This document shows positions 14,301-49,201 of a DNA stretch of 64,000 bases, piece after piece. The position numbers and the translations under genes were made by a program. This DNA is from a virus. The notes under the pieces are model-generated. The model saw only the letters and a list, made by a program, of their open reading frames with translations, had not been told where the DNA came from and searched no databases. The stretch covers positions 1 through 64,000 of IMG/VR virus record IMGVR_UViG_3300034071_000380; one strand, given 5' to 3'. The stretch's first letter is position 1. The number at the start of each line of letters is the position of its first letter.

Positions 14301-17300
14301 ACCCATTCCTGGGCTTGTAAATGGTTTGCGTGGCTGCTCAGCCATCTGATGCATGTAATCTGAGTGTTGTGGAACATTTCCACTAAATTTAAGTCCTGGA
14401 ATTTCTGTTCCGCCCCATATATCCATACCTGGACTACGTGGCCCAATAAACCTAGAAAGCTCTCCCCAATATTGTCCAAAAGGATTTCCTATAGGCTTTC
14501 CAGATCTTGAATAAGGAACACCTGGTTTCTTTTGTCTTGGTACAGTTAAAGGTCCATTTATCCAATTTCCAGAATCAGTCAATGAGTTTACAACTTTTCC
14601 ACCTTGTGCAAACTTCTTTATATTAACCTTTGTGCCTGCAAAAATTCTTGATCCACCCATATATTTTGGATCATTTAGCTGTGGATTCATTTCCATTAAT
14701 TGCTTGACGCTAATTCCATACTTTGCAGCAATTGCAGATAATGTATCTCCTCTGCCTACTGTGTATCTATCATTTTCATAATCTGACTTAGCATCATCTG
14801 CGCTGTAATATTCTGGTGTGCCATATCCATATTTAATAGTATCTACTGGCTTATATGAAGGTCTTCCAAATCCTACAATTGGAGCATTCTTCATATTGTA
14901 TTGTCTTACTTTTGCAAGTACTCCGCCGCCGCTTCTTTGACTTCCAGAACCAGATGTATTTCCTTCTATAGTTGAAACTGCATTCTTGCTTAAAACTTTT
15001 CTTACTAGTCCTACGTGAGAGATTCTATTGACGCCGTCTCCTGGGAAATCCATAAAGGCTAGATCTCCACGAAGTGGACTCATTGTTGTCCACTTGCCGC
15101 TCTTCCTAAATGATTGAGCTCCACCAGGAGTCCATATCATGCTTGCTAAATCTACTCCAGATTTTTTTGCCGCCCAATTTATAAATGCACCACACCATGC
15201 AATAAATCTAGTTTTTAAATCATAAGCTTTTTGTGCAAAGCTTCCAAATATTGTGTCGTTGCCTCTTCCTTCTTTATAACCCAACATAGACTCTGCTGTT
15301 TTAATCATTGAGTCTGCTGTGCCCATTTTAGTTACCTTGCCGCCATTAGCAAATCTGCCAGCGTTTAGGTTATCAAGAAAATCTGGACCAAGGTTTCTGC
15401 TTGCCTTCTCAACTGAAGAGGCTTTAATTACATATTCACCATCTGAAAGATATGCTGGGATAGAGTCAGATGTTGAAGTGCCTGGACCCATTACGTCCCC
15501 GCCTGGAGCGTAGTGTTTTACAGCCCCACCTTGTGCAAAAGTAAAGTTACTTCCTGGGTTGTCGTATCCTGGGTTATACCATCTTCCAACAAGTTTATTA
15601 TTTTTTAAAACATCGCCATTCTTTTTATATAAATATCCACCCTGATTTAAATCTTTAATTGGCCCCAACATTTCTAAACTTTGTCCGCCTCCATATGTTG
15701 GATGCACAAATGATTGATTTGATCCAGCAGGTCCACCTACTGGAACTGGCATAACACGAGCTTGCTCTCTTGTGTACTTAACTCCAGTTGAACGATTTTG
15801 AAATCCTCCAGTAGCGGGGTCAAAAGATAATCTAGCTCCTGATGTTGGCGTAGGAGTTCCAGACAGTATTTTCTTTAGTAATCCCAAAACTTCTGTATCT
15901 GATGTTTTAAGTTCTCCCTTTTCGTTGTAAATTGCTTTACCAAATGCTGACTTAGCTATTTCCTCTATGCCACTTGGATTTGGAACAAATCTGCTTCCTA
16001 CATAGCTACCGCCTCCACCAGATAGAGATCTTGCTATGTCTTTATATCCAGCTTTTTCTAAATCAGATATAAGCAGATTAAGTCTATCTTTCTCTGTTGG
16101 ACTTAATTCACCATCTGTTGCAGAAGTTGTTAGTGCAAGGAGCTCTGTGAGCAACGAGCTAAGATTTTCAACTTTTGCGTTTGCTGCATCAGCTGTCTTT
16201 TTTGCTGAATCTACTTTATTCTGAAGTCCATCAATTCTTGCATTAAGTGCATCAATTAATGATTGCTCTGCTGCAATATCTTGTTCAGCTTTTAAATCAA
16301 TTGCTCTCTTTGCTAAAGTAACTTGCTGAGATCCAACTAACTGTTGAATTGCAATTTGTGCTTGTGCTGCACCAGACATATCTCCAGCAGCTAATTTGTC
16401 TTGATACTCAAGCTGCTTTGCTTTAATTCTAAGATTAATATCTTCATCTGCATTTTCTTCATCTAAAGCTTTCTTTCTTGCGTCCGCTTCTTCTTTTATT
16501 TTTTGAATCTTTTTATTATGTAATTCAATTTCTTTACGAAGAGCCTTAGCTGAAAGTTCTGCGTTTTGAATAATTTGTTCTGCATTTGTTTTTGAAACCT
16601 TTGCCATATCTTTTACAATTTGTGAATATGGACCAGATTTTAATGCTTCTCTTTGTTTTTCAATTATTATAGAAAGAGCTTCAGCGGCTGCTGGCCCCAT
16701 ATTTACAAAATCTAAAGCTATTCCAGATGTAGAAAGTCTAACTTTTGCCATAATGCTTGCTAAAGTATCTGTTGTGTTTAGAAGCCTATTCATCTCCGCA
16801 TTTTGCTTTACTATAGCATTGACACCCTCAATTCCAATTGCTACATTTCCACTAGATGTTGCCTTTATCTGCTTTAATATTTCCTGATAAGATTCTGAAG
16901 AAGTTATAAGTTTGCCATTTTTATCTTTTGTATTCTCAATTGAATCTGCTAAATTATTATAAGCATTTAATGCGGTATCCAAGGACTTGCTTAGCTGGTC
17001 TGTATTTCCATTTTTAATTACATTATTAAATGTTTCCAGGGTAGACTTTGCAGCAGAAGCTTTATCTGTAATAGTTCCAAAACCTTTATCTCCTAATACT
17101 GACAAAGCCTGGGCTGATTTATTTGAAATTGAAATTAATGCATATATTAATTCATTTGCATTTTCTACAGACATCCCGCTTGATACAAACATGGCTTTTA
17201 GTTGAGTTGCTTTCTGTGCCAACTCTTGCTCAGATGCTACATTTAGCATTTTAAGTTCTGTTGGTAACTGTTCCTTAGCTTGCTTTTTTAGTTCATCAAA

Positions 17301-20300
17301 TTCTTTTACAGTTATATCTATTCCTTGACCAGGAGCTTTTGTTGTAGTATATTTAAATGCTGCCGCCGCTGCATTTCTTAATTCAATTTCCTTTTTGTTT
17401 TTTTCTATAGATGAAGTTAAAGTTTTATAGTTAAGATTTAGCTTTTTTACAGTTTCTTCTTCTAGGCCAAAAGCGGAGTCAATTATTCTTCGTCTCTCAT
17501 TAATTTTGTCATTAATGGTTTTTATTGCAACTCCTACACCAAGTAAGACAGCTATTAATTTGACTGGCCCAGGCATTTTTGTAAAAAGTTGAAATGCTTT
17601 TGTTAATAAAGTTGTTTGAGTTCTTGCTGTTCCTGCAGCCTTAGACATAAGGAACATGTCTGTTGCCATTTGACCAACCATGTATCCGCCCATTTGCCCA
17701 ATACCGCCAAACATTCTGCCGCCAACTTGACTTAATCCAAATCCAGCAGCCTGCCCTAGAAGCATTGACTTCATGTATCCAGATGCTCCAATTCTTGGCT
17801 GAACAATTCTTTGTTCGTTTTCTTCCGCAAAGTATTGAACTCCAGGAACTACCCCGCCCTTTGAGAATCCAGGAATAATTCCACCAGACATTTTTGGAAC
17901 AAATATTTCTGGGCCATTCTCTCCAACCAAATATGGTCTACCACCAGTAACTGGTCCTCCGCCTGCACGAGCACCATCAACAACTGTCTCTAATTGTATC
18001 TTGCCATCTCCTGCATTAACAATTCTAAACTTACCACCAAAGATTGATTCTTGTTCTGACCTTGAATTATGTCCAGCTACCTTTTGTCCAAATGGCGCTG
18101 AGAATCTTGCATCTGGGAAAATATCTGATGCTGGAACAACATTTCTATTTCTTACAATTGCTTCTAACAGAATAGCTTTTTGGTCTCCTGGAGCAGAATG
18201 GCCAGGGGCAAACAAACTTGCTACATCTCTATTTTGGCTCCACGATGAGCGGCGCATTATAAATTCTCTTCCAATTAAAGGAGTATAGTCTCCAGTTAAT
18301 TTTGCCTGAGATATTAAATCCAATATATCTGCTGGCAACGGATTTGATTTATTATTCTTTAAAAATATTCCTCTGTATAGTCTTCCAGTATATTTTCTTG
18401 ATAAAGTTTTTACTGCTTCTGTAGCGCCTGGAGTTTGCAAAATGCCATAGTTTCCAGCCATGTATTGACGCAATATGTATCTGCCACGATCCTCTAAATT
18501 ACCAATTGGGAACTGAGGAAGCACTGCTTGTCTTGCAAATCTGTCGTCACGATATAAAATTTCACGAGTCCACTCAGGCTCATTTTGCATATTTTTTGGA
18601 ACCATTGTTGTTCCAATTTGTAATGGCCCATGAAGTGGATCTTGGTTTCCTAGTGTATATTGATATCCTGGTTTTCTGAACTGCATTTGTGGCTTCCACT
18701 TTGCAGTTAATTTATCAAGCTTTGACTTAGATAAAGACTTTACTATTCTTCCAACCATGTTGGTTCCAAAGTTTTGTATGATCCCGCCCATATTTTTTCT
18801 TTGTATTCTAGCTACTTTATTTTCTTTTAGGGCAACATAATCTCGTTCGTATAATGCGGTTGGATTATATTGAGTTAAAACTCTTTCTATTTCTGGAATT
18901 ACATCTTTTGTAAAAGTAAACTCTGCGCCAAGCTCTGGTCTATCTCCTATAGTTGGAAGTTGATCTACTGAGACACCACGTCTTTGTGCTTCGTTTTCAA
19001 ATCTTGTTCTTATTGCTGAATCTATTGCTTCTTCAGCTTCATCCCATTGAGAAAGAGGAATTTTTGCAGCTCTTAATTGATTTCTATATTTGTTTACTCC
19101 TGCTACCTTAACAAGGTCTCTTCTTAAAAAGTCGGATGGTCTAAGGTTATTTTGGTTTGCTGATAAATTAGTTGCCGCTGTATAATCTACAATATAGTTG
19201 CTTACTAATACTTTTCCATCTCCTAGTTTTTTACTTACTGTAAGATGCGTACCATGTCTTGGCTCTGCATATGGAAGTGCATCTAGTCCATTTTCTACAA
19301 ACCTTGAATTTAATTCGCTAACATTTTTTGACTGTAATGTTCTTGATGTTTGAGAATGAAGTGCTGGATCTTTTTTAGACCTAGTTAATTTATCTGTAAA
19401 GTTTTTAGCTACATCTAAATATTTTTGTTTTAATACAGGATCTGGAATATCACCAATTTGAGAAATAAATCCTCTAGCATCTGCCCCTCTTGCTTTTATG
19501 CCATGAACAGTTTCTACTACATCTCTATTTCTAGTTGTAGAAAGACCTTTAACAATTCTATTAGGCATCATTCTGCCAAAGAATTGCATACCGTCTATCA
19601 TTCCGCCTTTATTTCTATTTTGAATTGGAACTATTACCGCTTTACCTTTATTGTATAGATGAAGTCCTTCTGGGTCACGAGCTGTTTGTTCTTTAGTTAC
19701 AACAAATTCTCCTGGAGTAAGCATTGCTGGAACGGTATCTGTATTTCCCTGACCAGGTACAAATCTACCTTGTTCGGTAGTAAATACTTGTCCACCCATA
19801 TTTAATCTTCTTGGTCTAGTTGTTTCTGTTGAATATGGTGCGCCAAATGTTTTAACTCTCAGTGCTTCAGCAATTCTTGTAATAAGACCTCTGTTTCTTG
19901 GTCTTGTAAGTTCTTTCATATTTGATTTTCCAGTTACTGGATCAAATGCTGGTTGATCTACAATTGGCAACTGTGTTAAATTAATTGTTCTTCCTTGTGC
20001 AGTAGCAACTCCTGTTGCTGCCTGCCCCATCATTGCTTCAATCTGTTGGTTTAATGCAATAACTCTTGCTCTTGCTTGTTCAACAGTTATCTTAGATGCT
20101 TGAAGATCTGCAACTATTTGTGCTGATTCTGATGCGGCAAGTGATGTTAATCTTGACATTTCTGGAAGAAGCGCTTGATATGAATCTGATAATGATGTAG
20201 TTATTAGTCCAGTTGCTGCAACTTCTCTCTTTAATAATGCTATTTCTTCTTTTGATTGCATTGCTAATGCACCAGTCATTGCATGCCACTTAGCAGCTTC

Positions 20301-35864: not shown

Positions 35865-36608
35865 TCATGGCTTATTAAGCTCCTCAGTGCTTCCTTTATG
35901 AATTGAGCTATTGGCTGCGGCTTCTAGTAAAAGCTTGACTGGCCTATATGAATTTGGCTTAATTGTATAGGTATTAAACTTAATTTGATTGTCTTCTTGC
36001 TTCATTCGAAAATTAAATACATACCAATCAATAGGGGCTGTTATTCCCATAGACTCTATATTTTCTATAGCCTTTTTAGCCCCCGACCTATTTACCACAT
36101 ATGTGGCACATGACCATTGCTGATAAGATCGGCAGGTAAGGCTATCATTATTAAAAGAATGTTTCATTTCATTATAAGCAAATAAGGAGTCATCTGGTAC
36201 AAACGGAGAAAAGAACTCCCAATCTTCTGGCAACTCCACTAGATATGAATTCAATATATATGCAAAATTTTTACTAAGAACAATATCGTCTTCAAACAAA
36301 ATAAGTATATCTTTGTCTGTTTCTAGAAAGTTTTTATATGCAATATAGTTGCTTGCCCATACACCAATTACTCCAGAGCTAGGTGGAAATGTTTCTCCTG
36401 GTTGGCAATAATCTTCTACAGTATTTACCTTAAATTTAGGTGTATCGGTTAAAAATTGATTTACTTTTTCTACTGTATTCAAGTATATTGTGGGTGAGGT
36501 TAATCTTGGTATTCCCGCCATTTCACTTAAAACATTGTCATAAGACTGATTTCTAAATTTATTTCCGCTGTCTGTATGAAATATTTCAAAGCATGAGTTT
36601 GCTAACAT
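35865..36608 (-). CDS. glycosyltransferase, GT25-like
   Basis: GVIGVWASNY...ILILFEDD...YVVNRSGAKK...PIDW matches the GT25 pattern. Confidence 0.75.
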   Translation of the reverse strand: MLANSCFEIFHTDSGNKFRNQSYDNVLSEMAGIPRLTSPTIYLNTVEKVNQFLTDTPKFKVNTVEDYCQPGETFPPSSGVIGVWASNYIAYKNFLETDKDILILFEDDIVLSKNFAYILNSYLVELPEDWEFFSPFVPDDSLFAYNEMKHSFNNDSLTCRSYQQWSCATYVVNRSGAKKAIENIESMGITAPIDWYVFNFRMKQEDNQIKFNTYTIKPNSYRPVKLLLEAAANSSIHKGSTEELNKP

Positions 36609-37132
36609 TTCTTAATCCACATTTGATATCCAGACTCTATGACTGTGTACTGATCCTTACATACCTCTAGGAAGCCGTCAACGCCTCTCTTAGGTTCTAA
36701 GAAGCGGTTGCCGTTATAGTTCCATAGGTAATCATCAAAAGCCATTACACCGCCTGATTCAAGCAACCTAAATGCATTTAATCCATCTAATGATGTCTGT
36801 AATGCTGTATGATCTCCATCAATGTATATAAAATTAAACTGTGATTTATTTGAAGCAAAGTACTCGTCGCTTGTCATTTTGTATTTATAAATACGAGTAT
36901 CATTAAACCTAGAGTCATAATAACTTTCTACTGAATTAAAGTCTAATGATTCATGAGCAATTTCTTCGCTTCCGCCCCATGTATCTACATCATGCAAATA
37001 TTCTAATTCTCTATTATTTAAAAGCCATTCTGTAGCATCTCCCGTATATGTGCCAATTTGCAAAGCACGAAGTGGCTCATTTGGCACATGACGGAAATAC
37101 TTTTCTACATCTTTAAACCAATTAGGAAACAT
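36602..37132 (-). CDS. class I SAM-dependent methyltransferase (Methyltransf_24-like)
   Basis: LQIGTYTG, FIYIDGDH, GGVMAFDDY motifs. Confidence 0.85.
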   Translation of the reverse strand: MFPNWFKDVEKYFRHVPNEPLRALQIGTYTGDATEWLLNNRELEYLHDVDTWGGSEEIAHESLDFNSVESYYDSRFNDTRIYKYKMTSDEYFASNKSQFNFIYIDGDHTALQTSLDGLNAFRLLESGGVMAFDDYLWNYNGNRFLEPKRGVDGFLEVCKDQYTVIESGYQMWIKKC

Positions 37133-37133
37133 A

Positions 37134-37694
37134 TTAGTACAACTTCAAATTATTAAGGCATCCAGTAACATATTCTGGAGCCATTTTATGATCATCTAAT
37201 AAATGCTGGAATAGAGACTTGCTCTCTTCTTTTTTGCCAAGCCACCATCCTGCCACCGCTTTTTCAAACATCAGGCAGTATGCGCCATTATAATCTACAT
37301 ATCCTGGAAGCGGTTGATGAAATGTATGTGTGGCATACAACAATCCCATTTCAGCAAATGTGTAGCAGTCTTGATACATCTTATTACGCTCATTAATTCT
37401 TGATAGCAGGAAGTATGCCTCTGGTCTATTTGGTAAGTAGGCTATAGCCTGCATAATATTATTATGGACAGTCTTATTTCTATCGCCCTGATGTGTCCAG
37501 CATATAGCCATTCTAAGTAATGATGTGTAGGTAATTAGTGGGTGAGTCTTGTATCCAAACTCTGCTGCTCTTAAATAAAATCCAGCTGCTGAAGCATATT
37601 GTTGCTGTGCATCGTAGGCTTGTGCTAGATCAAAATTAATCTGAACATCAGATGGGTTTGAGGCCAGCGCTATTGTTAATTCTCTAATTGCCAT
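37134..37694 (-). CDS. TPR-repeat protein
   Basis: Helical TPR pattern (AIAYLPNRPEAYFLLS); start revised to MAIREL. Confidence 0.7.
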   Translation of the reverse strand: MAIRELTIALASNPSDVQINFDLAQAYDAQQQYASAAGFYLRAAEFGYKTHPLITYTSLLRMAICWTHQGDRNKTVHNNIMQAIAYLPNRPEAYFLLSRINERNKMYQDCYTFAEMGLLYATHTFHQPLPGYVDYNGAYCLMFEKAVAGWWLGKKEESKSLFQHLLDDHKMAPEYVTGCLNNLKLY

Positions 37695-38688
37695 ATGCCA
37701 TTGCCTCCGTAATAATTTCATTTACAACATTTGACGGAACTTCTAATATAAATGCTGCATTGTCTTGAATGCCAAAGCTTAGTAATAAGTTGTCATTTTT
37801 AATTGCAGCACCAACACAAAATTCAATCGGTGTATCAAGAAATGCAAACGATTTGCTTAGCCCAACAAAGTTAAAATCTTTATCCCATACAATAACCCTA
37901 TGTCTATAAATTGAGTCTTTTTGTTTAAGATAATTCTTCCATAGTTTTACTTCATGGGTAACTGTAATATAATACTCTCCCCATTTAATAACATTGGTTC
38001 CGCCTCTTTGATCAATTGGGGCAGCAGGAGTAGATTTAACAACAACTTGTTCACATTCTGGTTTATCTGGATTAGCCTTTACAATCTCTGTAGGCATTGC
38101 CCATTTAACAAAGTGATACGGCTGATCTAATATAGGCATCCAGTTTTTCTCACAATATGATGTTGCCTCATCAATTGGAGCTGGGATTCTTACACGCTGT
38201 ATTTCTGTTGCAGTCCAGTTTTCTTTATCTAATTCAATCTTAGAGTATTCCATTCGGCCTTGCCCGTTTGGAGTTGTATCACGGCGAACACCAATAAGAT
38301 AGTAGTCTCCACCCCATTGTGTAATTCTACAATCTTCTTCGCCAACAAACTCCCAAATTGGCGGTACATCAAATTTAGAATAATCTACTTTAGTATAATT
38401 AATTATATTTAATTTATTATCTAAGCGACATAAATAATTAGTTGTTACAAGTCTCTGATCTTTTTCAGGATGTAAGTATGATAATGGTCCCCAAGGACTG
38501 AAGAAGTTTTGATCTTTTTCTGAATGATAAAGCGTATAATTAACTCTGCGAATATTTACTAAAATATCTCCGTCATCATCAATAAAGATAGATGGATTCA
38601 TTAATCCCATTCCGTCTGAAACTTCGGCTGGAATAATAAGGGGAACTAAATTTCCCCCACTATCTATTGATCTTTGTACTAGATTCAT
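37684..38688 (-). CDS. five-bladed beta-propeller glycoside hydrolase/phosphorylase-like protein (GH130/GH43-like)
   Basis: MNPSIF, GEEDCRI, EKNWMP, RGGT, IEFCVG, SFGIQD motifs. Confidence 0.7.
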   Translation of the reverse strand: MNLVQRSIDSGGNLVPLIIPAEVSDGMGLMNPSIFIDDDGDILVNIRRVNYTLYHSEKDQNFFSPWGPLSYLHPEKDQRLVTTNYLCRLDNKLNIINYTKVDYSKFDVPPIWEFVGEEDCRITQWGGDYYLIGVRRDTTPNGQGRMEYSKIELDKENWTATEIQRVRIPAPIDEATSYCEKNWMPILDQPYHFVKWAMPTEIVKANPDKPECEQVVVKSTPAAPIDQRGGTNVIKWGEYYITVTHEVKLWKNYLKQKDSIYRHRVIVWDKDFNFVGLSKSFAFLDTPIEFCVGAAIKNDNLLLSFGIQDNAAFILEVPSNVVNEIITEAMAYGN

Positions 38689-38743: not shown

Positions 38744-39304
38744 TTATGCAATTATTTCATTATAAATTAAGTATATTTGTTCTAAATCAGCAGCAAACTC
38801 TGTTGTTATTTGTGAATGTAGTTCTGTATTATCTTGTGTATTAAATCCAGGTACAGCATGTGTTCTACCATCAGATATTAAACTATTAGTTACATCCAAA
38901 TCATTTACTTGAAGCGGTTCCCCTAATTGTGGAAATTTTTGATAGAACTTATTAAGTACAGAATTTATATCAGTACACATTTCGTCAAACCTAGAGATAA
39001 AAATATTTTCTTTATTATTTTTAATATCTTCTAAATATGTTTTAACATATTTAACGTGTTGATTTTTTTGCTCAGTGTTGTTTTCTATTTTAAAAAATGA
39101 AAAAACAGAACTAAGTGTATCTACTGGATCTCTTAAAGAAATTGCTATTCCAGAATAAATTGTTAAATCTTTTATAAGTCCGACCCCAAAATGTGGCGCA
39201 GGGTCGTCTGAAGTAATAACTGCATTTGGATAAGCAATTTTTAAAGAGTGGTGTAAAAAATTAGATCCTGTTCTAAAATAACCATCAGAGTATATTAGCG
39301 TCAT
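38744..39304 (-). CDS. sulfotransferase-like protein
   Basis: GYFRTGSNFL (5'-PSB-like) and LRDPVDTLSS (3'-PB-like); ATGA-coupled start at 39304. Confidence 0.7.
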   Translation of the reverse strand: MTLIYSDGYFRTGSNFLHHSLKIAYPNAVITSDDPAPHFGVGLIKDLTIYSGIAISLRDPVDTLSSVFSFFKIENNTEQKNQHVKYVKTYLEDIKNNKENIFISRFDEMCTDINSVLNKFYQKFPQLGEPLQVNDLDVTNSLISDGRTHAVPGFNTQDNTELHSQITTEFAADLEQIYLIYNEIIA

Positions 39305-39471
39305 TCTACTTCCCTCCATGATAAAGATTCTTCATGCCAATAGTAAGTCTTTCCGTCTACTGGTAAAGCAACTGGTGAATCCCAATATTTACCTCCAAGA
39401 CCGTTGTCTTTTAAAACCCAAGACTCATGTGGTTTTGGTAAAGACTCATCAAATTCGTGATTAACCGACAT
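39301..39471 (-). CDS. 56-aa Trp/Pro-motif protein (MSVNHEFDESLPKPHESWVL...YWDSPVALP...YYWHEESLSWREVE)
   Basis: Read manually; paralogous to 43845..44201 and 47308..47616. Confidence 0.75.
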   Translation of the reverse strand: MSVNHEFDESLPKPHESWVLKDNGLGGKYWDSPVALPVDGKTYYWHEESLSWREVE

Positions 39472-41461
39472 ATTTTAAGATCACCACCCCATTACCACCG
39501 CTTGCACCAGGTGTATTTTGTGAATTTGAATTAATAATACTTACCCATCCACAACCTCCTCCGCCTCCAGTACCAGTACCATTCGCTCCTGCACCAGGCA
39601 ATGTAAAAGGTCTAAAGTTATCGACACGGGAATCTCCAGCAGAGCCAGATGCCCCGCCCAATCCGTCACCTGATGTGTATGGAGAATAAGGATTTGCTCC
39701 TCCACCACCTGCTGCGTATTTACTTCCAAAATATGTTACCGCCCCGCCTGGTACTCCATAGTAAGCATTACTTACAGTGTTTCCAGTTGAGTTTGGAGAT
39801 GCATTTAATGCACCACCTCCTCCACCAGCGTTATTTCCTTGTGCGTTAGATCCAGCTTTTCCTTGTCCAGATGTTCCTGATCCTCCTAAGTGTCTATTAG
39901 TATTAATACTATTATTTGAAACTGTCGCACCTCCGCCACCTGAACCAAATCCACTATTTGCAGTTACTCTAGCATTTGCAGTACTATTTGCTCCTCTTTC
40001 TCCTCCAAGGGCTGTTAAGTTTGCAAATACTGAAGAGTTTCCGCTAGTATCGCCTCCTCCTCCATTGCCAACTGTTACTGCGTAGTTAGTATTTGGGCTA
40101 ATTGAAAGGGCAGCAGAGTACTGTACTCCACCTGCGCCTCCACCGCCGCCGCCAAATTCACCAGAGAGATTAGATCCTCCAAAACCTCCGCCGCCGCCGC
40201 CGCCAACAAGTAGAACCTCAACATTTGATACTCCTGGGTTTGTAAAAGTGCCACTGGAATTAAATGTTGTTGTTAATGTAGTTGGAGCTGTAACTGCAGA
40301 AGATGCAGAGCTTGCTGCAGATGTTCCTTGTGCAGAGGTAGAGGTTACGGTAAATGTATAGCTAGTCCCACCAGTTAAACCTGAAACAACAATAGGTGAA
40401 GAAGATCCTGTTGCAGTAATTGAACCTGGGCTAGATGTTACGGTATAAGATGTTGGAGTATATCCAGTTGTTGGTGCTGTAAATGCAACAGAAATAGATC
40501 CAACTGTTGAAGTTTTTGTTCCTGCAACTGATGTTGGAGCAACGGGAACTGTTTGTCTTGCCATTGTAAATGCTCTGTCTACAAAGTTGCCACCAGAGTC
40601 AGTAGCTCTAATAGTAAATGATCCAGGAGAGGCAGAGCTAGAAGTTCCAGAAATTACTCCAGTTGAAGAGTTTAATGTCATTGAACTTGGAAGAGATCCA
40701 GACGCAATTGAGTATGTTATTGAAGAACCTCCGTCAGCATCTGTTGCTGACAAGGTTGTTGAGTATGCTAAATTTACAAAAAACGTTGGTAGAGTAGAAG
40801 ATGTGACCCAAACTGGAGCTGCTCCAACTGTTGCTGAATTTATTAACTTATGAGCATTTGATGATGTTGGTGGAGCAATTCCAGGATTTGTTGCAGTAAT
40901 TGTATAAGGAGAAAATGTAGTTGGCATATCGTCTGGTCTTGTAACAGTTAAAGATGTAGAAGATGTTCTAGTAACAGATTTTGCATTTCTAGCAACTGAA
41001 TCTGATCCAGTAAATGTTACTTCAACATCAGTAGCAAAATTTTGGCCCGTTAAAACAGTTGTGTTATTTATATTTGGAAGAGAAGCAGTACCTGTTGATA
41101 TTAATCTTGCGGCTGCTGCAACATTTGTTGCTATATCGCTAGTATTAAAAACATATAAAAATTGAAATACTAAAATATCATTATTTGTAGCTCCATAAAT
41201 AACAACTTTATTAAAAGATTTAGATGCAACAATAGTGGTTGATGCGGTTGTTGCATTTGCATAACCTGCGCTTGTTCCATCTTCATTAATAAGATAAACG
41301 TCTAGTGTTGCATCTGAAAGTGAAGATGTGCATATGTAGCTACCTGCTGGAAAAGTTGTTGTTAATGAAACATTTGTATAGCCAGAAGCTCCTACATTGA
41401 TATTAAAATCATTTGTTGCTGCTCCGCCGCCTCCAGATAAACTTGTATAACTTAATGCCAT
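39461..41461 (-). CDS. Gly-rich fibre/receptor-binding-like protein with Ig and FN3 domains
   Basis: He_PIG-like Ig, FN3, VEVLLVGGGGGG...GGNGVVILKY terminal domain; TAATG-coupled start. Confidence 0.7.
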   Translation of the reverse strand: MALSYTSLSGGGGAATNDFNINVGASGYTNVSLTTTFPAGSYICTSSLSDATLDVYLINEDGTSAGYANATTASTTIVASKSFNKVVIYGATNNDILVFQFLYVFNTSDIATNVAAAARLISTGTASLPNINNTTVLTGQNFATDVEVTFTGSDSVARNAKSVTRTSSTSLTVTRPDDMPTTFSPYTITATNPGIAPPTSSNAHKLINSATVGAAPVWVTSSTLPTFFVNLAYSTTLSATDADGGSSITYSIASGSLPSSMTLNSSTGVISGTSSSASPGSFTIRATDSGGNFVDRAFTMARQTVPVAPTSVAGTKTSTVGSISVAFTAPTTGYTPTSYTVTSSPGSITATGSSSPIVVSGLTGGTSYTFTVTSTSAQGTSAASSASSAVTAPTTLTTTFNSSGTFTNPGVSNVEVLLVGGGGGGGFGGSNLSGEFGGGGGGAGGVQYSAALSISPNTNYAVTVGNGGGGDTSGNSSVFANLTALGGERGANSTANARVTANSGFGSGGGGATVSNNSINTNRHLGGSGTSGQGKAGSNAQGNNAGGGGGALNASPNSTGNTVSNAYYGVPGGAVTYFGSKYAAGGGGANPYSPYTSGDGLGGASGSAGDSRVDNFRPFTLPGAGANGTGTGGGGGCGWVSIINSNSQNTPGASGGNGVVILKYVG

Positions 41462-41967
41462 TATCCTACTCTCCATCCATAAGTTGATCCAGTATAAATT
41501 AAAACAACTGCTGCATTATTTGCATCAATTTCTAAATCTTGAACTGAACCATTTATTTTATTTGAATTTGAACTTACTGTAATTTTATTTGTTGCTGCCT
41601 CCCCAGTTACATCAAATATATGAATTTCATCTCCCAAAGCAGGTGAGGCTGGAAGAGTTAATGTTCTAACAGCAGAAGTATTAACCATATAATTAATATT
41701 TTTAGCTATTGTTATATTTGAAGAAACTGAAACTGCTGTCCATAATGGAACAATTGAAGCTAAAGATGTTGGAGCATATGTTGTTCCGCCAGATGAATAT
41801 AAAAATTCTCCAGAACTAGGAGATGTTGTTGTTCCTGTTCCGCCGTATTGTGTTGCTAAATTTGTATGAGAATCAACTAAATGATCAGTAGATAATAAAA
41901 CTCCACTAGCATTGCTTAGTCCAGCTATAGTAAGCTTATTCTTTACTTTAAAATCTTTATCTGACAA
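41461..41967 (-). CDS. fibre adaptor-like protein (KDFKVK family)
   Basis: DKDFKVKN N-terminus; TLTLPASP..GDEI..FD...YTGSTYGW domain. Confidence 0.65.
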   Translation of the reverse strand: MSDKDFKVKNKLTIAGLSNASGVLLSTDHLVDSHTNLATQYGGTGTTTSPSSGEFLYSSGGTTYAPTSLASIVPLWTAVSVSSNITIAKNINYMVNTSAVRTLTLPASPALGDEIHIFDVTGEAATNKITVSSNSNKINGSVQDLEIDANNAAVVLIYTGSTYGWRVG

Positions 41968-42027: not shown

Positions 42028-42327
42028 TTAAAATGCTGTATCTGGCTCTTTTTTAGATGTTATTATAACAGCCTTTGTTCCGTCCCAACGTACACGACCT
42101 TTACATCCAACATTAAACTTTTTAACTTCGCCTTCATAGGAAATTTGATCATGCATGTATCCATGAATTTCAAATCCGCTTGCGAGAAGTTCCACACCAT
42201 TTATATAAACTCTCCAGACCAAAGGATTATCTTTTTCTGCTTTAGTATTAAAACGTAGAATAATATCATCATATGGGCGAAGCCATCTGTCTTTAGCAAT
42301 TTTTAAAACATAGCTTAATTTACTCAT
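42028..42327 (-). CDS. hypothetical protein
   Basis: ATGA-coupled to the APS kinase fusion gene. Confidence 0.6.
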   Translation of the reverse strand: MSKLSYVLKIAKDRWLRPYDDIILRFNTKAEKDNPLVWRVYINGVELLASGFEIHGYMHDQISYEGEVKKFNVGCKGRVRWDGTKAVIITSKKEPDTAF

Positions 42328-43082
42328 ATACCCATTTCCTTGCGTTTTTGCGTTGCAGAAATAGCATGAATATCTGCACCTAAATCTACTTGTTCAATCT
42401 TATATCCTACGTCTCTTCCATATACAATATTTGTAATATTAGGCAGTCTTAGTACTAATGCACCATCCATAAAGTCATCCTTAGCAATATACTCTTTTAC
42501 CTGATCAAATGTTAACGGGTCTTTAGGACTTGTGTTATATGTATTACGTACTCCAAGAAGAACTTGTTCTGTTCTGTTTCCCGCCTCTTTATATAATGCG
42601 TGATGGCCTTCATGCCATGGCTGATATCTTCCAAGCATTAGTGTTGTTGGAGCGGACCAATCATGAAGATTAAACTTTTCAATTATATATGAAGCTTTAC
42701 CTTCGGTATCTAAGTTATGACTAATAAAAGATGCATCAAATTCTGTAGGACGCTCAAACATTTTATTTGTATCTTCAAAGCGTCCCTCTGCTAATGTATC
42801 CATAAATATCAAAATGTTTGGTTTGCCAAATGCTGCACGAGTTAGGCTTGTTGGGCAAATAAAATCTACAATTACTGTATGCCCTTGCCCATCTAGCATA
42901 CGTGCAATTTCACCCAATCTACGTGCATGCTCAATTCTATCTTCAATTGTAAATCCAAGATCTGAATTAATTGTTGCACGAACATAGTCTGCATTTAAAT
43001 GAATAGCGTTAATACGTTCTTTAAGGGCGGTAGCAAGGGTCGTCTTACCACTTCCTGGAAGTCCCATAATCTGTATAATCAT
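42324..43082 (-). CDS. cysC: adenylylsulfate kinase fused to an HxGH nucleotidyltransferase domain
   Basis: GLPGSGKTT, ADYVR...DLGFTIEDR (APS kinase); GRYQPWHEGH, YGRD, ISAT..R in the C-terminal half. Confidence 0.8.
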   Translation of the reverse strand: MIIQIMGLPGSGKTTLATALKERINAIHLNADYVRATINSDLGFTIEDRIEHARRLGEIARMLDGQGHTVIVDFICPTSLTRAAFGKPNILIFMDTLAEGRFEDTNKMFERPTEFDASFISHNLDTEGKASYIIEKFNLHDWSAPTTLMLGRYQPWHEGHHALYKEAGNRTEQVLLGVRNTYNTSPKDPLTFDQVKEYIAKDDFMDGALVLRLPNITNIVYGRDVGYKIEQVDLGADIHAISATQKRKEMGI

Positions 43083-43807
43083 TAACGATATTCCTTTGTT
43101 TGTCTATATTGAACTTTATATGAATCAAAAAATCTAGTTCTAAGCCTTGTTGTTATTTTATTTGTTTCGACAAGGTCTTCTTGTTTTCCAATAGACATCT
43201 GCCAATCTTCTCTTAAAAATGGAATTGCTTGAGCTATTGGAGTTCCAGCTGGGATAAGGCCTTCAAAATTTATATCGTTTAGTACAAACGGAAAATTAAC
43301 TGCAGCAGAGTATGTATCGGTATCTACAATTCCTGGCAAAATTGTGAAAGATGATTCTCTATGAAATGGTTGTGTAAATAAAACTGAATACCCAGGTGGA
43401 GTTTTGATTGCCCATGGATTTATCCATTTTGGATAGGAAACTTCATGCCCATTTCTATTCGGATGATTTGGTGCTTGTTCTACTGGATGAAATTCAATTA
43501 AACTAAAATTTGCCCATTCATACCATGGTTTTTTGCCTAAAGAATTTTCATTTTCGTCAAATATTTCTCTTTGTGAAACATATACATCTGCTGGAGTTTT
43601 AATAATATATCCTGCATTAATTACATCAAATACTGGCATACAACGTTTAATTGTTCCTGTTGTATTGCCATTTCCTGATGGCTTTTTTTCTCCGCCCATA
43701 TATGACTCTAAATCTTTATACCAAGAAGGTATGTTTTTTGAAGCGGGTTCTGGAGGAAATATCTCTTCAATCCCCATCATATTTGTAAAAGTAATTATTT
43801 GATTCAT
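43082..43807 (-). CDS. phage protein of unknown function (possible dUTPase-like beta-clip fold)
   Basis: TIKRCMPVFD...GY...NPWAIKTPPGYS...PGIVDTD...GTPIAQAIPF pattern. Confidence 0.55.
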   Translation of the reverse strand: MNQIITFTNMMGIEEIFPPEPASKNIPSWYKDLESYMGGEKKPSGNGNTTGTIKRCMPVFDVINAGYIIKTPADVYVSQREIFDENENSLGKKPWYEWANFSLIEFHPVEQAPNHPNRNGHEVSYPKWINPWAIKTPPGYSVLFTQPFHRESSFTILPGIVDTDTYSAAVNFPFVLNDINFEGLIPAGTPIAQAIPFLREDWQMSIGKQEDLVETNKITTRLRTRFFDSYKVQYRQTKEYR

Positions 43808-43844: not shown

Positions 43845-44201
43845 CTACTCATCTGTAGGAGGGGTACTTTGTTCTATTTCTACCCAATTAACTATATCTT
43901 CATTCCATATCCAATTTGAAGAATCTGGTTTAGCAATAGGCGGAACCCATTCATTTAGATCCTCATCAAATACCCATGAAGGGTGTGGAGATGGAAGAAG
44001 AAATCTGTTTCCATTCCAAAATGCAACCCCTATAGAGGCAAGCTCTTTTTCAAAATCCATAGGGTAAGCATTTGCACAAGAAAAATCTATTTTTAGCCTA
44101 TCTATAGTTGTAGAGTCATTTTCTTTAACTACAAAAACATGTTGCAAAACATTATTTTCATCTACAAATCCATATCTAACATCTTTTAAGTTTTCAGACA
44201 T
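43845..44201 (-). CDS. Trp/Pro-motif small protein (putative fibre chaperone)
   Basis: PSPHPSWVFDEDLNEWVPPIAKP...WIWNEDIVNW. Confidence 0.6.
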   Translation of the reverse strand: MSENLKDVRYGFVDENNVLQHVFVVKENDSTTIDRLKIDFSCANAYPMDFEKELASIGVAFWNGNRFLLPSPHPSWVFDEDLNEWVPPIAKPDSSNWIWNEDIVNWVEIEQSTPPTDE

Positions 44202-44778
44202 TGCTTTTCTCCATCTTTTCTTTTATTTTACTATATATTTCTATAGCTTCTTGAGTTTCATTTAATTTTAAAAAATCTTCTTTTATTTTTAAATCTGGTA
44301 GATACTCACTTCTTTTGTTAAAAAACATTTTTTTATTTCTTTCCATATATTCATTAATTAAATCTAAATCAGCAGTATTTGTTTTTTTTATTTTAAATTT
44401 TTTTGAAATTAGATTAGAAATGTAATCTAAGTTTTTTGTAAAAATATCAAAATCTAGACATAGAATATTATCAAAGTTTTCATAAACATAATTCATGTAT
44501 CTTGTATAAAATTTTATATCTAAATCAATGTTTACGCCTGCATCTTTTCTATTTAAAAATTTTTTAAATTCATAAAATGAAGCAATAGTATCTATCGGGT
44601 TACGTATTGGTACTATAATGTTATTTTTTTGTTCAACCTGTTTAGATAAATATATTACAGAATGCTCATGTAAAGACATACACTTTACATCTTTATACAT
44701 ACTTTCTATGCAGGTCTCTAGAAATGTATTTCCAGTTCTAAAAAATCCAGCAATGACTATGTTAGACTGATCTTCCAT
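44194..44778 (-). CDS. sulfotransferase-like protein
   Basis: GFFRTGNTFL (5'-PSB-like) and IRNPIDTIASFY (3'-PB-like). Confidence 0.7.
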   Translation of the reverse strand: MEDQSNIVIAGFFRTGNTFLETCIESMYKDVKCMSLHEHSVIYLSKQVEQKNNIIVPIRNPIDTIASFYEFKKFLNRKDAGVNIDLDIKFYTRYMNYVYENFDNILCLDFDIFTKNLDYISNLISKKFKIKKTNTADLDLINEYMERNKKMFFNKRSEYLPDLKIKEDFLKLNETQEAIEIYSKIKEKMEKSNV

Positions 44779-46795
44779 AGACCCTTATAAATCCATCTCC
44801 GCCGTTTCCACCACTGCCTGAAGAATATCCAGTATGTGGGGTATTGCTAGCACCTCCACCGCCGCCACCGCCAGCACCAGCAGTATTTGCTGCTGATCCT
44901 GAATTTCCGTGACCACCGCCTGAATCAAAACCTCCGTATCCATATGGATTTTGGTTGGTACTTGAGCCATTTCCAGAGCCTCCTGAGCCGCCTCCTGGGG
45001 TTCCACCAGCTCCGCCATTACCACCAGCAGCGGATCCATCAAATCCATTTGTTCCTCCGCCTCCGCCGCCGCCGCCAGAACCAGACATTGCAAGAACTGG
45101 AATGTTTGCAACAGAAAGATCAATACTAAGTGCTGAGTTGGTTCCAGCGGTTCCAGTCTGTCCTGGCTTTCCGCCACTACCACCTGAACCACCAGTTTGT
45201 CCAACTCTAGTTATTGCTCCATTAACATTTGAAGTTGCTGTTGGCTGGTTATTCGCTGGCATAGTTGTTGTAGCTAAATTTCCAAATGCTGTTGTTGATC
45301 CAACAGTAACATCGTAAGTTGTTGTTGGGGTTACAACAGTATCTTTAAATCCAAAACCTGCTGCTGAGCTTCCTCCTTTTCTACCAGAATTAGCCATAAA
45401 TGAAGTTCCACCTCCTGCTTGACCAGAACCAATTCCAACAATTGCAAGCCTTGTAATTCCAGTTGGAACTGTAAATGTTCCAGATGAATTGTAAGTTTGC
45501 AATAATTCATATTGAGATGTGCTTGTTGCAGAATTTGAAGCAGAAGATGCAGAAGATGATCCATTTGCATTAGCTGCTGTTACTGTAAAGGTATATGGGG
45601 TTCCTACTGTAAGACCAGATACTGTAATAGGCGATGTGCCTGTTCCAGTTACTGATCCTGGAGATGAGGTCGCTGTATATGTAACAGATTTTCCGCCTGT
45701 TGCGCCTGCTGTAAACGCAACTGAAATTTTTCCATTAAATGCATCTGTAGCTGTTCCAATTGTAGGAGCTTGAGGAACTGTTGTTGCTGTAATGCTACTA
45801 GTTGCTGAAGAAGATAGAGAGTTGCCAGTAGCGTTTGTGGCGGTTGCAGTAAATGTATACGATGTGTTTGACTGTAGTCCAGCCACTGTAATTGGAGAAG
45901 AAGATCCAGTTCCAGTAAATCCACCTGGAGAAGAAGTTACTGTGTATCCAGTAATTTCGGATCCTCCAGTTTGGCCAGCTGTAAATGTGACTGATGCTGC
46001 TCCGTTATTAAATGCACGAGATGTTCCAACATCTGTAGCTGTTCCAATTGTAGGAGCTTGTGGAAGTGTAGCAGCTGTTATTGAGCTTGATGCTGATGAA
46101 CTTGATGTTGTTCCATTTGCATTTGTTGCTGTGACTGTAAATGTATATCCTGTTCCAGCTGTTAATCCAGAAACGGTTAATGGCGAAGAAGCGCCAGTTT
46201 GAGTAAATGATCCAGGAGATGATGTTACTGTATATGTAGTAGATTTTCCACCAGTAGCGTTTGGAGTAAATGATACTGTTGCTTCTGGTGCAGATCCATA
46301 TGCTATGTTTGAAACAAGTGCCGCTGAAACTGAACTTGGAAGGTCTGGTATTGTTGTTGCTGTAATTGCTGACGAAGGCGCAGATGCAAGTGAGTTTCCA
46401 TATGCGTTTGTTGCAGTTACTGTAAATGTGTATGCTGTATTAGACTGTAGACCCTCTACAACAACTGGTGAAGACACTCCAGTTGCAGTATATCCTCCTG
46501 GTGATGATACGACTGTATATCCAGTAATAAATCCACCAGATGTTGGTGCTGAAAAAGATACTGATGCTGCTCCATTGTTAAATGCACGAGATGTTCCAAC
46601 ATCTGTGGCTGAAACATTTGTAGGTGAACCTGGAATTGCTCCTAATGTTACCCATCCAGAAGAAGTATAAATTTCTTGTGCTCCTAATGTTCCATTATAA
46701 TAAAAGTCTCCAATTGATGCAGGATCTGGTCTATTTGCTGTTGTTCCTTTTGGAATGCTTGATCCACCCAATAAGTCTGATCTTTTTAATACCAT
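44762..46795 (-). CDS. Gly-rich fibre/receptor-binding-like protein with four FN3 repeats
   Basis: 4x YT.TSSPG...SP.TV.GL...YTFT.TA repeats; terminal GGDGFIRVY; TAATG-coupled start. Confidence 0.75.
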   Translation of the reverse strand: MVLKRSDLLGGSSIPKGTTANRPDPASIGDFYYNGTLGAQEIYTSSGWVTLGAIPGSPTNVSATDVGTSRAFNNGAASVSFSAPTSGGFITGYTVVSSPGGYTATGVSSPVVVEGLQSNTAYTFTVTATNAYGNSLASAPSSAITATTIPDLPSSVSAALVSNIAYGSAPEATVSFTPNATGGKSTTYTVTSSPGSFTQTGASSPLTVSGLTAGTGYTFTVTATNANGTTSSSSASSSITAATLPQAPTIGTATDVGTSRAFNNGAASVTFTAGQTGGSEITGYTVTSSPGGFTGTGSSSPITVAGLQSNTSYTFTATATNATGNSLSSSATSSITATTVPQAPTIGTATDAFNGKISVAFTAGATGGKSVTYTATSSPGSVTGTGTSPITVSGLTVGTPYTFTVTAANANGSSSASSASNSATSTSQYELLQTYNSSGTFTVPTGITRLAIVGIGSGQAGGGTSFMANSGRKGGSSAAGFGFKDTVVTPTTTYDVTVGSTTAFGNLATTTMPANNQPTATSNVNGAITRVGQTGGSGGSGGKPGQTGTAGTNSALSIDLSVANIPVLAMSGSGGGGGGGGTNGFDGSAAGGNGGAGGTPGGGSGGSGNGSSTNQNPYGYGGFDSGGGHGNSGSAANTAGAGGGGGGGASNTPHTGYSSGSGGNGGDGFIRVYGRSV

Positions 46796-47280
46796 TAAAT
46801 TACACTCCATCCATATCCAGAACCTGTATAAACAACAGACACTACATCATAATTTATATCTATTTCTAAGTCTTGAACTGTTCCATTAATTTTGTTGCTA
46901 TTTGAAGCTACTGTGATTTTATTAGTTGCCGCCGATCCAATTATATCAAATATTTGTATCTCGTCCCCATTTGAGGGGGAGGCAGGAAGAGTAAGAGTTC
47001 TTACAGAACTAGTATCTACTAAATATCTTTTATTTACCTCTAAAGTAACATTAGAGGAAACAGAAGTTGTAGTCATTTGAACAAATGAGGGTGTAGGAAG
47101 AGATGACCAAGATGTATTGGTTCCATCTGATTTTAAATATTGTCCATTTGCTGAAGATTGAACTGGCAATAAAGCATTTAGGGAATTAGTAGCAGAAGTT
47201 TGTCCTGTTCCGCCCTCTGTAATAGGAAGCGGGGTACCAAGATCAAGCCCTGACTTTACTTTAAAATCTTTATCTGCCAT
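46795..47280 (-). CDS. fibre adaptor-like protein (KDFKVK family)
   Basis: Paralogue of 41461..41967. Confidence 0.65.
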   Translation of the reverse strand: MADKDFKVKSGLDLGTPLPITEGGTGQTSATNSLNALLPVQSSANGQYLKSDGTNTSWSSLPTPSFVQMTTTSVSSNVTLEVNKRYLVDTSSVRTLTLPASPSNGDEIQIFDIIGSAATNKITVASNSNKINGTVQDLEIDINYDVVSVVYTGSGYGWSVI

Positions 47281-47307: not shown

Positions 47308-47616
47308 TTACAATATAATCCAGTTTTGATTTTCCTCAGACCACTCATATGAAGACTCGGTTTGCGGTTCAGGAATTGGGGCTTCCCATTTGTGAAATTC
47401 TGTATTCCAGGACCAAGAATCAAATGGCTTAGTAACAAATAGTGCTTCTGAAGTTTCTGGAAGATAATATTCTCCATCTTCGTGAACTTTATATGAAAAA
47501 CCACCAAGGTGCTCTTTAAATATATTTAGAAGTTCAGTATTGTCTTTATCTTCTTCATTTATTAAGATAGTTGTTATTGCTTTACCGTCTTTATCAAATA
47601 CTGTTAAGTCTTTCAT
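47308..47616 (-). CDS. Trp/Pro-motif small protein (putative fibre chaperone)
   Basis: KPFDSWSWNTEFHKWEAPIPEP...YEWSEENQNW; ATGA-coupled start. Confidence 0.6.
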   Translation of the reverse strand: MKDLTVFDKDGKAITTILINEEDKDNTELLNIFKEHLGGFSYKVHEDGEYYLPETSEALFVTKPFDSWSWNTEFHKWEAPIPEPQTESSYEWSEENQNWIIL

Positions 47617-48689
47617 GATCCAGCACTCCATTTCAATACTACAACTGCACCGTTTCCACCAGATCCAGACTGTCTGTTATTCTGTGATGAAGCACATCCA
47701 CCACCGCCACATCCTGGTCCTCCACTGCTACCACTATTTCCACCACCATCATTAAATCCATTACCAACTCCACCACCAGCGCCTCCTGCACTTAATCCAG
47801 GAAGTCCAGATCCGCCAGCACCACCTGTTCTGCCATCATTGCTAGCGCTCCAGTTTACTGCTCCACCGCCACCACCAAGATATCCAGGATATGCTGGAGA
47901 ATAAATTGTTGAAGGAATAGTGTATGTTCCACCAGAACCGCCAGAGTTGGCGCCAGAATTCATGGCATTGTTACCCTTACCACCGTTTGCAGCTCCAGAA
48001 CCACCCAAACCATTATTAGTATTGTTTGATCCACCAACTTGTCCACCAGTACCTCCATTAGCACTTAAAACATTACCAAACGTAGTTGCTCCACCAGTAC
48101 CACCGCTAGAATTTGATCCACCGAGTTGTGAAACTCCACCAGAACCTACAGTGATAACATAATTTCCAGCAGTAGTAATTGGTGTATTTGTAAGTGCTGC
48201 AAAACCACTGCCTCCACCGCCACCGCCACCGCTTGCTCCTGGTCCACCTCCGCCACCAGCACCGATTGCTATACAATGCATAGATTCTCCAGCACCTAAT
48301 GTTATTGTTGTACTAGACGTATATGCTGTTAAAGTTCCAATAGATTGCGTTGAATATGAACCAAGTGGCAAAATTGAAAAAACTACATTTGATGTGCTGG
48401 CACGAAACTGAAGTCTTGTAGCATTTGACGGAACAGACAACTGAACTGTGCCGCTTGATGTTTGTCCACTTGTTACAAAAGATCCATCAGATGCATAAAA
48501 TGCTACATAAGTAATTACAGAAGTAGCACAGTTTATAAGGTATGACCCAGCAGGGGCAGTATATGAAACATATGATGGTGTTGTTTGAGCAGTATAATAT
48601 CTTGGTGTTGATGATGGTATTTGAGCAACAACTGCTGTTGCTATTGTTTCCGCTGAAGGCGGTTGAAAACTTGATAAATTAATTGGCAT
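47613..48689 (-). CDS. Gly-rich fibre/receptor-binding-like protein
   Basis: CIAIGAGGGGG...GGNGAVVVLKW terminal domain; TAATG-coupled start. Confidence 0.7.
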   Translation of the reverse strand: MPINLSSFQPPSAETIATAVVAQIPSSTPRYYTAQTTPSYVSYTAPAGSYLINCATSVITYVAFYASDGSFVTSGQTSSGTVQLSVPSNATRLQFRASTSNVVFSILPLGSYSTQSIGTLTAYTSSTTITLGAGESMHCIAIGAGGGGGPGASGGGGGGGSGFAALTNTPITTAGNYVITVGSGGVSQLGGSNSSGGTGGATTFGNVLSANGGTGGQVGGSNNTNNGLGGSGAANGGKGNNAMNSGANSGGSGGTYTIPSTIYSPAYPGYLGGGGGAVNWSASNDGRTGGAGGSGLPGLSAGGAGGGVGNGFNDGGGNSGSSGGPGCGGGGCASSQNNRQSGSGGNGAVVVLKWSAGS

Positions 48690-49201
48690 TAAAACATTCT
48701 CCATCCATATGTTGCATCTGTATATACAAAATAAACTACTCCGCCATTAACATCTATTATAGCATTATCTGCTATTCCGTTAATTAAATTTGAATTTCTT
48801 AAAATTGTAATATTGTTTGTTGCCGCCAAATTTTTTGCATCAAATATTTGAATTTCTGCTCCAGCTGTAGGTGAAGCAGGCAAAGTTAGTGATCTTGCTG
48901 CTGTTGTATCTACCAAATATCTTGTTCCAGCAACTAATGTAATATCTGAATTAATTGAAGAATTTATAAAAGATGCTGGGCCTGTTTCTCCAATTGTACC
49001 TTGTGTTCCAGTTGTTCCTTGAGCACCAGTTGTACCTTGAGCTCCAGTAGTTCCCTGTAGGCCCGTAGAGCCCTGTGTACCAGTTGCTCCTTGTGTACCA
49101 GCGGTTCCTTGTGTACCAATGGTTCCTTGTGCACCAACAGTTGAGGCGGTGCCAACAGTCTGCCAAGCACTTCCATCCCATACTTTAATTAATTTAGCCA
49201 T
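48689..49201 (-). CDS. fibre adaptor-like protein with short collagen segment
   Basis: GAQ/GTQ repeats followed by the same LTLPASP...YGW domain as 41461 and 46795. Confidence 0.7.

Follow-up and report, generated by a model that had tools for sequence, protein, structure and literature searches.

A 252-residue phage fusion of an APS kinase-like domain and a minimal HxGH nucleotidyltransferase as a candidate PAPS synthase

To our knowledge, sulfate activation has so far been assigned to two types of enzyme, the ATP sulfurylase Sat and CysDN. Organisms without Sat and CysDN are called unable to use sulfate in metabolic reconstructions. The animal 3′-phosphoadenosine 5′-phosphosulfate (PAPS) synthases PAPSS1/2 (∼620 amino acids) place an adenosine 5′-phosphosulfate (APS) kinase before a nucleotidyltransferase in one polypeptide. 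The same order, with the same proposed two-step chemistry, is found in a 252-amino acid protein of a phage (IMG/VR record IMGVR_UViG_3300034071_000380, 78.7 kb), of which positions 1 to 64,000 were analyzed and are referred to as the window. The gene (42324..43082, minus strand, stop codon included; open reading frame [ORF] list) encodes an APS kinase-like domain followed by a minimal HxGH nucleotidyltransferase domain (miniNT). It differs from PAPSS1/2 in that the second domain is not of the ATP sulfurylase family PF01747, a PUA-like part is absent, and the kinase lid is shortened. The fusion is probably a minimal PAPS synthase that works in two steps, with a sulfurylase module belonging to a new family. 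It is reasonably likely that miniNT represents a third, unrecognized class of ATP sulfurylase, of ∼110 amino acids and descended from an ancestor resembling nicotinamide mononucleotide (NMN) adenylyltransferase (NMNAT). The pathway and the logic of the fusion are known; what would be new is the enzyme family for the first step, and literature searches of partial coverage returned no description of miniNT as a sulfurylase.

Both recognized sulfurylase types bear comparison with the phage protein. Sat (PF01747) and miniNT have the HxGH α/β nucleotidyltransferase fold in common, as well as the order in which the HxGH (HxxH), GRD, and SxTxxR motifs follow one another and the genomic partners CysC, CysH, AprA, and sulfotransferases. 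However, Sat comprises a catalytic domain of ∼210 amino acids plus a PUA-like domain, compared to ∼110 amino acids for miniNT, it carries QxRNP and GRDHAG where miniNT has GRxQP and YGRDVGY, and the two exhibit no significant sequence or profile similarity. The PUA-like N-terminal domain is absent from the phage protein, in which miniNT starts ∼10 residues before the first core strand and is preceded by the kinase. CysDN and CysNC likewise couple sulfate activation to a P-loop protein, often through fusion to CysC, but CysD belongs to the PP-loop ATP pyrophosphatases (PF01507) and its fold is unrelated to that of miniNT, and the phage system has no GTPase.

We infer that sulfate is the acceptor of miniNT and APS the substrate of the trimmed kinase. 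In the proposed mechanism, miniNT would move AMP from ATP onto sulfate, yielding APS and pyrophosphate, and the fused kinase would phosphorylate the 3′-OH of APS to give PAPS, drawing the unfavorable first step forward. The PAPS would most likely feed two sulfotransferase-fold enzymes encoded among the tail-fiber genes, the candidate acceptors for sulfation being fiber glycans, fiber proteins, or the host envelope. The fusion protein matches phrog_10255 ("kinase") over its full length, and the AlphaFold2 (AF2) model of all 252 amino acids has a mean predicted local distance difference test score (pLDDT) of 95.4 and a predicted TM score (pTM) of 0.87. Such a single-body model is compatible with tight coupling of kinase and miniNT.

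The APS kinase-like domain (amino acids 1–139, with a shortened lid region; 42666..43082, minus strand) was identified by Pfam, TIGR, and Foldseek searches. The Pfam family PF01583 (APS_kinase) matched amino acids 2 to 84 with an E value of 7.4e-17 and 62.2 bits (cut-off, 21.1 bits), a match which covers only profile positions 4 to 91 of 152. When the full model was compared with the Protein Data Bank (PDB) by Foldseek, the entries listed at ranks 1 to 50 were APS kinases or PAPS synthases throughout (TM score by target, 0.6–0.78), and the kinase domain of PAPSS1 (2ofw) was among the best structural matches of the kinase domain (E 8.6e-10). The P-loop is GLPGSGKT (amino acids 7–14; 43041..43064, minus strand), and its residues G7, G12, and K13 hardly vary in an alignment of 43 divergent fusion proteins (33–47% identity), which also underlies the residue conservation given below for the fusion. 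An APS kinase signature stretch, LNADYVR...DLGF...EDRIEHARR (amino acids 29–55; 42918..42998, minus strand), aligns with LDGDxxR...GF...R..H..R of solved APS kinases, with positions D32, R35, F44, and R49 nearly invariant. The fold, the P-loop, and the D/R/F/R substrate motif of APS kinases are all present in the phage kinase domain.

The second domain, miniNT (amino acids 140–252; 42327..42665, minus strand; AF2 and VIA-align), is the proposed sulfate adenylyltransferase and was modeled as a small HxGH nucleotidyltransferase core (pLDDT 94.8). A preliminary description of the window had noted three motifs here, and in the ORF translation all three lie where it put them: the HxGH nucleotide-binding motif GRYQPWHEGH (amino acids 151–160; 42603..42632), IVYGRD (amino acids 219–224; 42411-42428), and ISATQKR, the ISxTxxR superfamily motif (amino acids 241–247; 42342..42362), each on the minus strand. 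Residues G151, R152, Q154, H157, H160, G222, R223, G226, and R247 are invariant among the fusions. The family alignment defines a family-specific GRD motif, YGRDVGY (amino acids 221–227; 42402..42422, minus strand), which is near-invariant (Y221, V225, and Y227 each in at least 90%) and in which G-R-D-x-G is conserved, canonical Sat having IVGRDHAG at the analogous point in the order of motifs. The HxGH and ISxTxxR motifs are common to the whole HxGH nucleotidyltransferase superfamily, and their reading as a mark of Sat does not hold; only GRD is unusual for an NMNAT-like sequence.

A search with miniNT only returned 880 cluster representatives at E ≤ 0.001, and its homologs occur as stand-alone proteins of 110 to 130 amino acids as well as in kinase fusions of either order. 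miniNT is evidently an independent evolutionary unit, and the C-terminal part of the phage protein is a genuine recurrent domain rather than a coincidental cluster of motifs. One homolog (P0127) gave a weak match to PF01747 (E 1.1e-3), which was discounted because the protein has an internal duplication. Two others (P0195 and P0222) have an N-terminal miniNT followed by pieces of chorismate synthase and 3-dehydroquinate synthase; because they may be chimeric gene calls and not real fusions to shikimate enzymes, they were left aside.

The main evidence for the function of miniNT is its genomic associations. An APS kinase domain is fused to miniNT or lies beside it in 75 of 80 distant viral loci, and two proteins (P0125 and P0254) have the order miniNT first, then a full APS kinase domain (E ∼1e-60). 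On a bacterial chromosome, a gene neighboring those for glutamate synthase, a POT transporter, and an RTX protein encodes miniNT and then a full CysC (L004:8001-8933), which scores 246.8 bits against the CysC equivalog model TIGR00455 (cut-off, 138.7 bits). Within a class-wide sample of 401 genomes, true miniNT was found in 11, at full length and with 144 to 176 bits, compared to at most 55 bits for NadM-like genes. Sat was missing from 10 of the 11 miniNT-bearing genomes, and five of eight fusion-bearing genomes in the sample had neither Sat nor CysD.

Among the 11 small genomes (0.6–1.2 Mb) of one alphaproteobacterial order (the G343 order), 10 have miniNT. At nine of the 10 loci, cysH, a membrane protein of 90 to 97 amino acids, a trimmed kinase, and miniNT stand together beside rne (60–94% identity), the tenth locus being cut by a contig end. 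In all 11 genomes, the gene immediately upstream of cysH encodes a sulfite reductase of ∼570 amino acids, and the operon CysH passes NF002537 (253.8 bits; cut-off, 154). Sat was found in one of the 11 genomes and CysD in none of them by PF01507 search, since the sole PF01507 match per genome is the operon CysH. By these searches, sulfate adenylylation is the only assimilation step without a recognized gene in the order, and the kinase and miniNT are the only enzymes of the operon without an assigned role. The phage miniNT is 48% and 46% identical to bacterial miniNTs, the former being the miniNT of the cysI-cysH operon, and the phage kinase domain is 47% identical to a bacterial kinase.

Another order (the G001 order; 25 genomes) carries a miniNT-CysC fusion in four genomes. 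Sat was found in none of the 25, nor were CysD and CysH; the PF01507 matches were weak and confined to the N-terminal ∼80 to 90 profile positions, in ORFs of ∼310 to 430 amino acids. Strong sulfotransferases occur in three of the four fusion-bearing genomes versus three of the 21 others (one-sided Fisher test, p ∼0.03, with kinship of the genomes ignored), and in two genomes (G001 and G021) sulfotransferases share a contig with the fusion, at a distance of 7 to 19 kb. A genome encoding AprA (G412; 994 bits) has separate kinase and miniNT genes, and neither Sat nor CysD was found in it. In this 1.3-Mb genome, the kinase and miniNT genes (locus L272; G412:C2:447906-451262) adjoin a Rieske oxygenase gene (best match GbcA-like, below cut-off), and the locus holds a further ORF of ∼280 amino acids, read as oxygenase-like from its sequence.

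Several observations weigh against the PAPS synthase reading. PF01747 gave no match in the window protein at E ≤ 1. When the miniNT alignment was compared by hhalign with an alignment of nine canonical Sat sequences taken from loci adjoining cysC, the probability was 3.3%, over 23 columns round HxGH only, and miniNT is by these measures homologous to Sat only at the superfamily level. NMNATs are its best matches, by sequence as well as by structure. The residues of the QxRNP motif and the His-Ala pair of GRDHAG, with which Sat contacts sulfate, are missing from miniNT: canonical Sat genes encode FQTRNPxH[RI][AG]H and the phage LGRYQPWHEGH, which agree only in P and HxxH. The kinase domain of the phage is trimmed, and its 62.7 bits against TIGR00455 fall below the cut-off of 138.7. 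A sulfotransferase-like ORF lies within the flanks of the fusion in nine of 80 close relatives, the other 71 having none within 10 kb. Three bacterial genomes (G264, an unpublished genome, G421, and G268) have the fusion together with CysD and CysH, and the bacterial genomes are incomplete assemblies, the completeness of which is not stated.

The profile searches point instead to an NMNAT lineage. Against the PDB, the miniNT profile matched NadM/archaeal NMNATs (1f9a, E 7e-14; 2qjt, E 2e-12), and no ATP sulfurylase was among the best 60 of 72 matches (E ≤ 10). The archaeal phosphopantetheine adenylyltransferase (PPAT)-like chain 3do8 (E 0.005) was the sole listed PDB sequence match to span most of miniNT. 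The closest sequence relatives, NadM/archaeal NMNAT (MJ0541; 1f9a), have GRFQPxHxGH, SGTxxR, and the first three β-α units in common with miniNT; GRYQPWHEGH and ISATQKR align to the corresponding stretches of 1f9a, with ISATQKR opposite YSGTEIR. miniNT is unlike NadM in possessing YGRDVGY, a stretch outside the HMMER-aligned part of Methanocaldococcus jannaschii NMNAT, in lacking an internal and a C-terminal segment, and in scoring below all NMNAT cut-offs: the phage protein reaches 24.8 bits on NF002243 (cut-off, 127) and 18.7 on TIGR01527 (cut-off, 181.2), and a bacterial stand-alone miniNT reaches 33.6 and 31.7 bits on the NadM/archaeal NMNAT models. Internally, ∼25 residues after strand 3 of M. 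jannaschii NMNAT are absent; miniNT profile positions 82 to 92 correspond to 1f9a residues 75 to 110, with chain residues 76 to 109 skipped, a segment which we take to contact NMN. The profile also stops ∼33 residues short of the end of 1f9a, so that the C-terminal subdomain is gone, and the miniNT model shows only short helices beyond the third strand. By this alignment, miniNT has lost the large-acceptor elements of NMNAT.

Structural comparison gave a flatter ranking. In VIA-align, miniNT matched NMNAT with Z 9.4, PPAT with Z 9.3, and Thermus thermophilus ATP sulfurylase (1v47) with Z 8.3, the last aligning 109 of 113 miniNT residues at a root-mean-square deviation of 2.9. Sat structures are within ∼1 Z of NMNAT and PPAT, and the fold ranking therefore cannot decide function. 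A Foldseek search with the miniNT model returned nothing at E ≤ 0.001, and ATP sulfurylase was absent from the listed ranks 1 to 50. miniNT is a domain of the NMNAT lineage, apparently re-purposed, and not a trimmed Sat. The preliminary description had read it as a stripped-down Sat-type enzyme, a reading that the PF01747, PDB profile, and hhalign results do not support, and had rightly named the likeness to NMNAT as the chief competing reading. Its proposal of a 252-amino acid PAPS synthase is strongly and independently supported as to predicted function by the fusions, operons, and pathway holes in bacteria and by the sulfotransferase-fold neighbors in the phage, but not as to Sat ancestry.

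That ancestry raises the question of whether the domain still works on NMN or nicotinic acid mononucleotide, with the fusion helping to salvage NAD(P) or to replenish NAD while the phage infects. The best profile matches to NadM/archaeal NMNATs, the fitting GR[FY]QPxHxGH signature, and the NMNATs at the top of the fold matches all agree with such an activity. It is nevertheless very unlikely, given scores far under the family cut-offs (24.8 bits versus 127), an alignment that omits residues 76 to 109 and the last ∼33 of 1f9a, and the separate score class formed by true miniNTs (144–176 bits versus at most 55 for NadM-like genes). In addition, the conserved partners in the contexts examined are sulfur-nucleotide enzymes in every case, and NAD genes are not among them. 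The same loss of ∼25 internal residues and the C-terminal subdomain leaves little to hold any large acceptor, which also bears on the idea that miniNT adenylylates or cytidylylates a small acceptor other than sulfate, to which the kinase adds a 3′-phosphate, producing a PAPS-like non-sulfate donor. Such an acceptor could be another oxyanion, a precursor of the phosphoramidate type (following the logic of Campylobacter Cj1415/Cj1416), or 4′-phosphopantetheine. From the Cj1415 work, APS kinase homologs reportedly phosphorylate other nucleoside diphospho-compounds, the PPAT fold match is as good as that of NMNAT (Z 9.3), 3do8 alone among the listed PDB matches spans most of miniNT (E 0.005), and most related phages have no sulfotransferase nearby. 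Another acceptor would, however, leave unexplained why the operon that includes sulfite reductase and CysH is conserved, why miniNT is fused to an equivalog-passing CysC, and why Sat and CysD are repeatedly missing from genomes that have APS users, and we regard it as unlikely.

Alternatively, miniNT may be a noncatalytic or regulatory nucleotide-binding module of the kinase, with APS supplied by host enzymes; fungal ATP sulfurylase, which has an allosteric kinase-like domain, offers a comparison. miniNT is unusually small, and in phage phiRSL1 the kinase is instead fused to another small domain (orf99, described below), with no miniNT detectable within 5 kb of that gene; the kinase can therefore exist without miniNT. 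Such a role is nonetheless very unlikely, as H157, H160, R152, R223, and R247 are invariant across the 43 divergent fusions (33–47% identity), miniNT is also found as a separate gene in operons, and the operon-bearing bacterial genomes have no other known source of APS. A minimal PAPS synthase is the reading adopted in what follows.

Two sulfotransferase-fold genes within 4 kb of the fusion are candidate users of PAPS. Gene 1 (194 amino acids; 44194..44778, minus strand; Pfam and Atlas) has a weak match to Pfam Sulfotransfer_1 (E 1.1e-3) and, in the Atlas, resembles sulfotransferase clusters with a TM score of 0.73 by structure and feature scores of 0.95 to 0.97. Gene 2 (191 amino acids; 38744..39319, minus strand) is a paralog of gene 1 by BLASTP (E 2e-11, 23% identity), with the common motifs G[FY]FRTG and R[ND]PxDT, and was also recovered with the A2 profile. 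The sulfotransferase assignment is based on the weak Pfam match, the motifs, and the Atlas; an alignment of five sulfotransferase-like sequences, used as a profile against the PDB, gave chance-level matches only. Both genes lie within tail-fiber cassettes, adjoining glycine-rich fiber proteins, and in the four closest relatives (90–92% identity) a sulfotransferase-like ORF directly abuts the fusion gene. Tight linkage of fusion and sulfotransferase as a rule among phages was rejected, given the nine of 80 close relatives and none of 80 distant loci (tblastn). The fusion sits among early-type genes in most close relatives, with neighbors that read from their sequences as an apparent nuclease, a small Cys-rich protein, and a possible small heat-shock protein. 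Sat, CysD, and CysH were not found in the phage record. Its portal protein is ∼57% identical to the portals of ∼130-kb Streptomyces phages, and an actinobacterial host is therefore likely.

If the assignment is correct, it suggests sulfation of the virion or host envelope tied to the tail-fiber cassettes in this phage, and the widespread viral "cysC" auxiliary genes would be complete PAPS synthases; a 2025 review tabulates the viral cysC auxiliary gene as "not validated" (PMC12713726). Calls of sulfate use would change for some abundant streamlined marine bacteria. SAR11 genomes, for example, have been tabulated with cysC and without a complete pathway (PMC5069961, Table 3), and the Sat partner that AprAB lacks in SAR11-like genomes may be miniNT. 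The cysI-cysH-kinase-miniNT operon would complete assimilatory sulfate reduction in a streamlined lineage of marine Alphaproteobacteria, and miniNT would supply PAPS to sulfotransferases in another bacterial lineage. For enzymatic sulfation, the fusion would be the smallest known PAPS-regenerating module.

A small gene, orf99 (99 amino acids; 42028..42327, minus strand), starts in overlap with the stop codon of the fusion gene and is likely a functional partner of it. Its domain, with the invariant pattern RFNT...WR...K.N..C.G, occurs free, fused to the kinase, or in a triple fusion: phiRSL1 ORF238 joins it to a trimmed kinase, and a 357-amino acid protein (L092:7749-8822) has the order orf99-kinase-miniNT. 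The orf99 gene is found downstream of the fusion at 10 of the 80 distant phage loci and at 11 of the 80 close ones. It had no match in Pfam, PHROGs, or the Atlas, and prediction of a complex between the fusion and orf99 scored 0.00, which counts neither for nor against partnership. The places of the orf99 domain are 42028-42327 of the window (minus strand), L092:7749-8822, and L003:4989-5684. The phiRSL1 locus (L003, 166139-176486) has the kinase-orf99 gene beside three genes annotated as glucosyltransferases and two sugar nucleotidyltransferase genes.

The membrane protein whose gene separates cysH from the kinase gene in the bacterial operon (70–97 amino acids; motif KTI[ST]W...FY.HER.W) also has homologs in phages, at most 5 kb away from the fusion, at 14 of 80 close loci; representative places are L270:696-989, L223:10781-11008, and L196:10781-11008. 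In one protein (P0145), a DUF4118 membrane domain is fused to the kinase and miniNT. Directly upstream of the phage fusion, with overlapping start and stop codons, is a gene for a 241-amino acid phrog_7084 protein (43082-43807, minus strand) without a Pfam match, homologs of which were found in eight of 80 related loci.

The minus strand carries nearly all listed non-overlapped genes of at least 90 amino acids in the window. These include genes for three glycine-rich fiber-tip proteins (39461-41476, 44762-46810, and 47613-48704, minus strand), the first of which matches Gly_rich_2 of Pfam together with Ig/FN3 domains. Within the region listed, an adaptor-like gene precedes each glycine-rich fiber-tip gene and a small Trp/Pro-rich protein follows two of them, and these sets look like repeated fiber cassettes. 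The structural region contains a single ORF of 3718 amino acids (11355-22511, minus strand). Among the fiber genes is also a glycosyltransferase-like gene (35865-36608, minus strand; phrog_16010, E 8e-16), adjoined by three small enzyme-sized ORFs (36602-38688).

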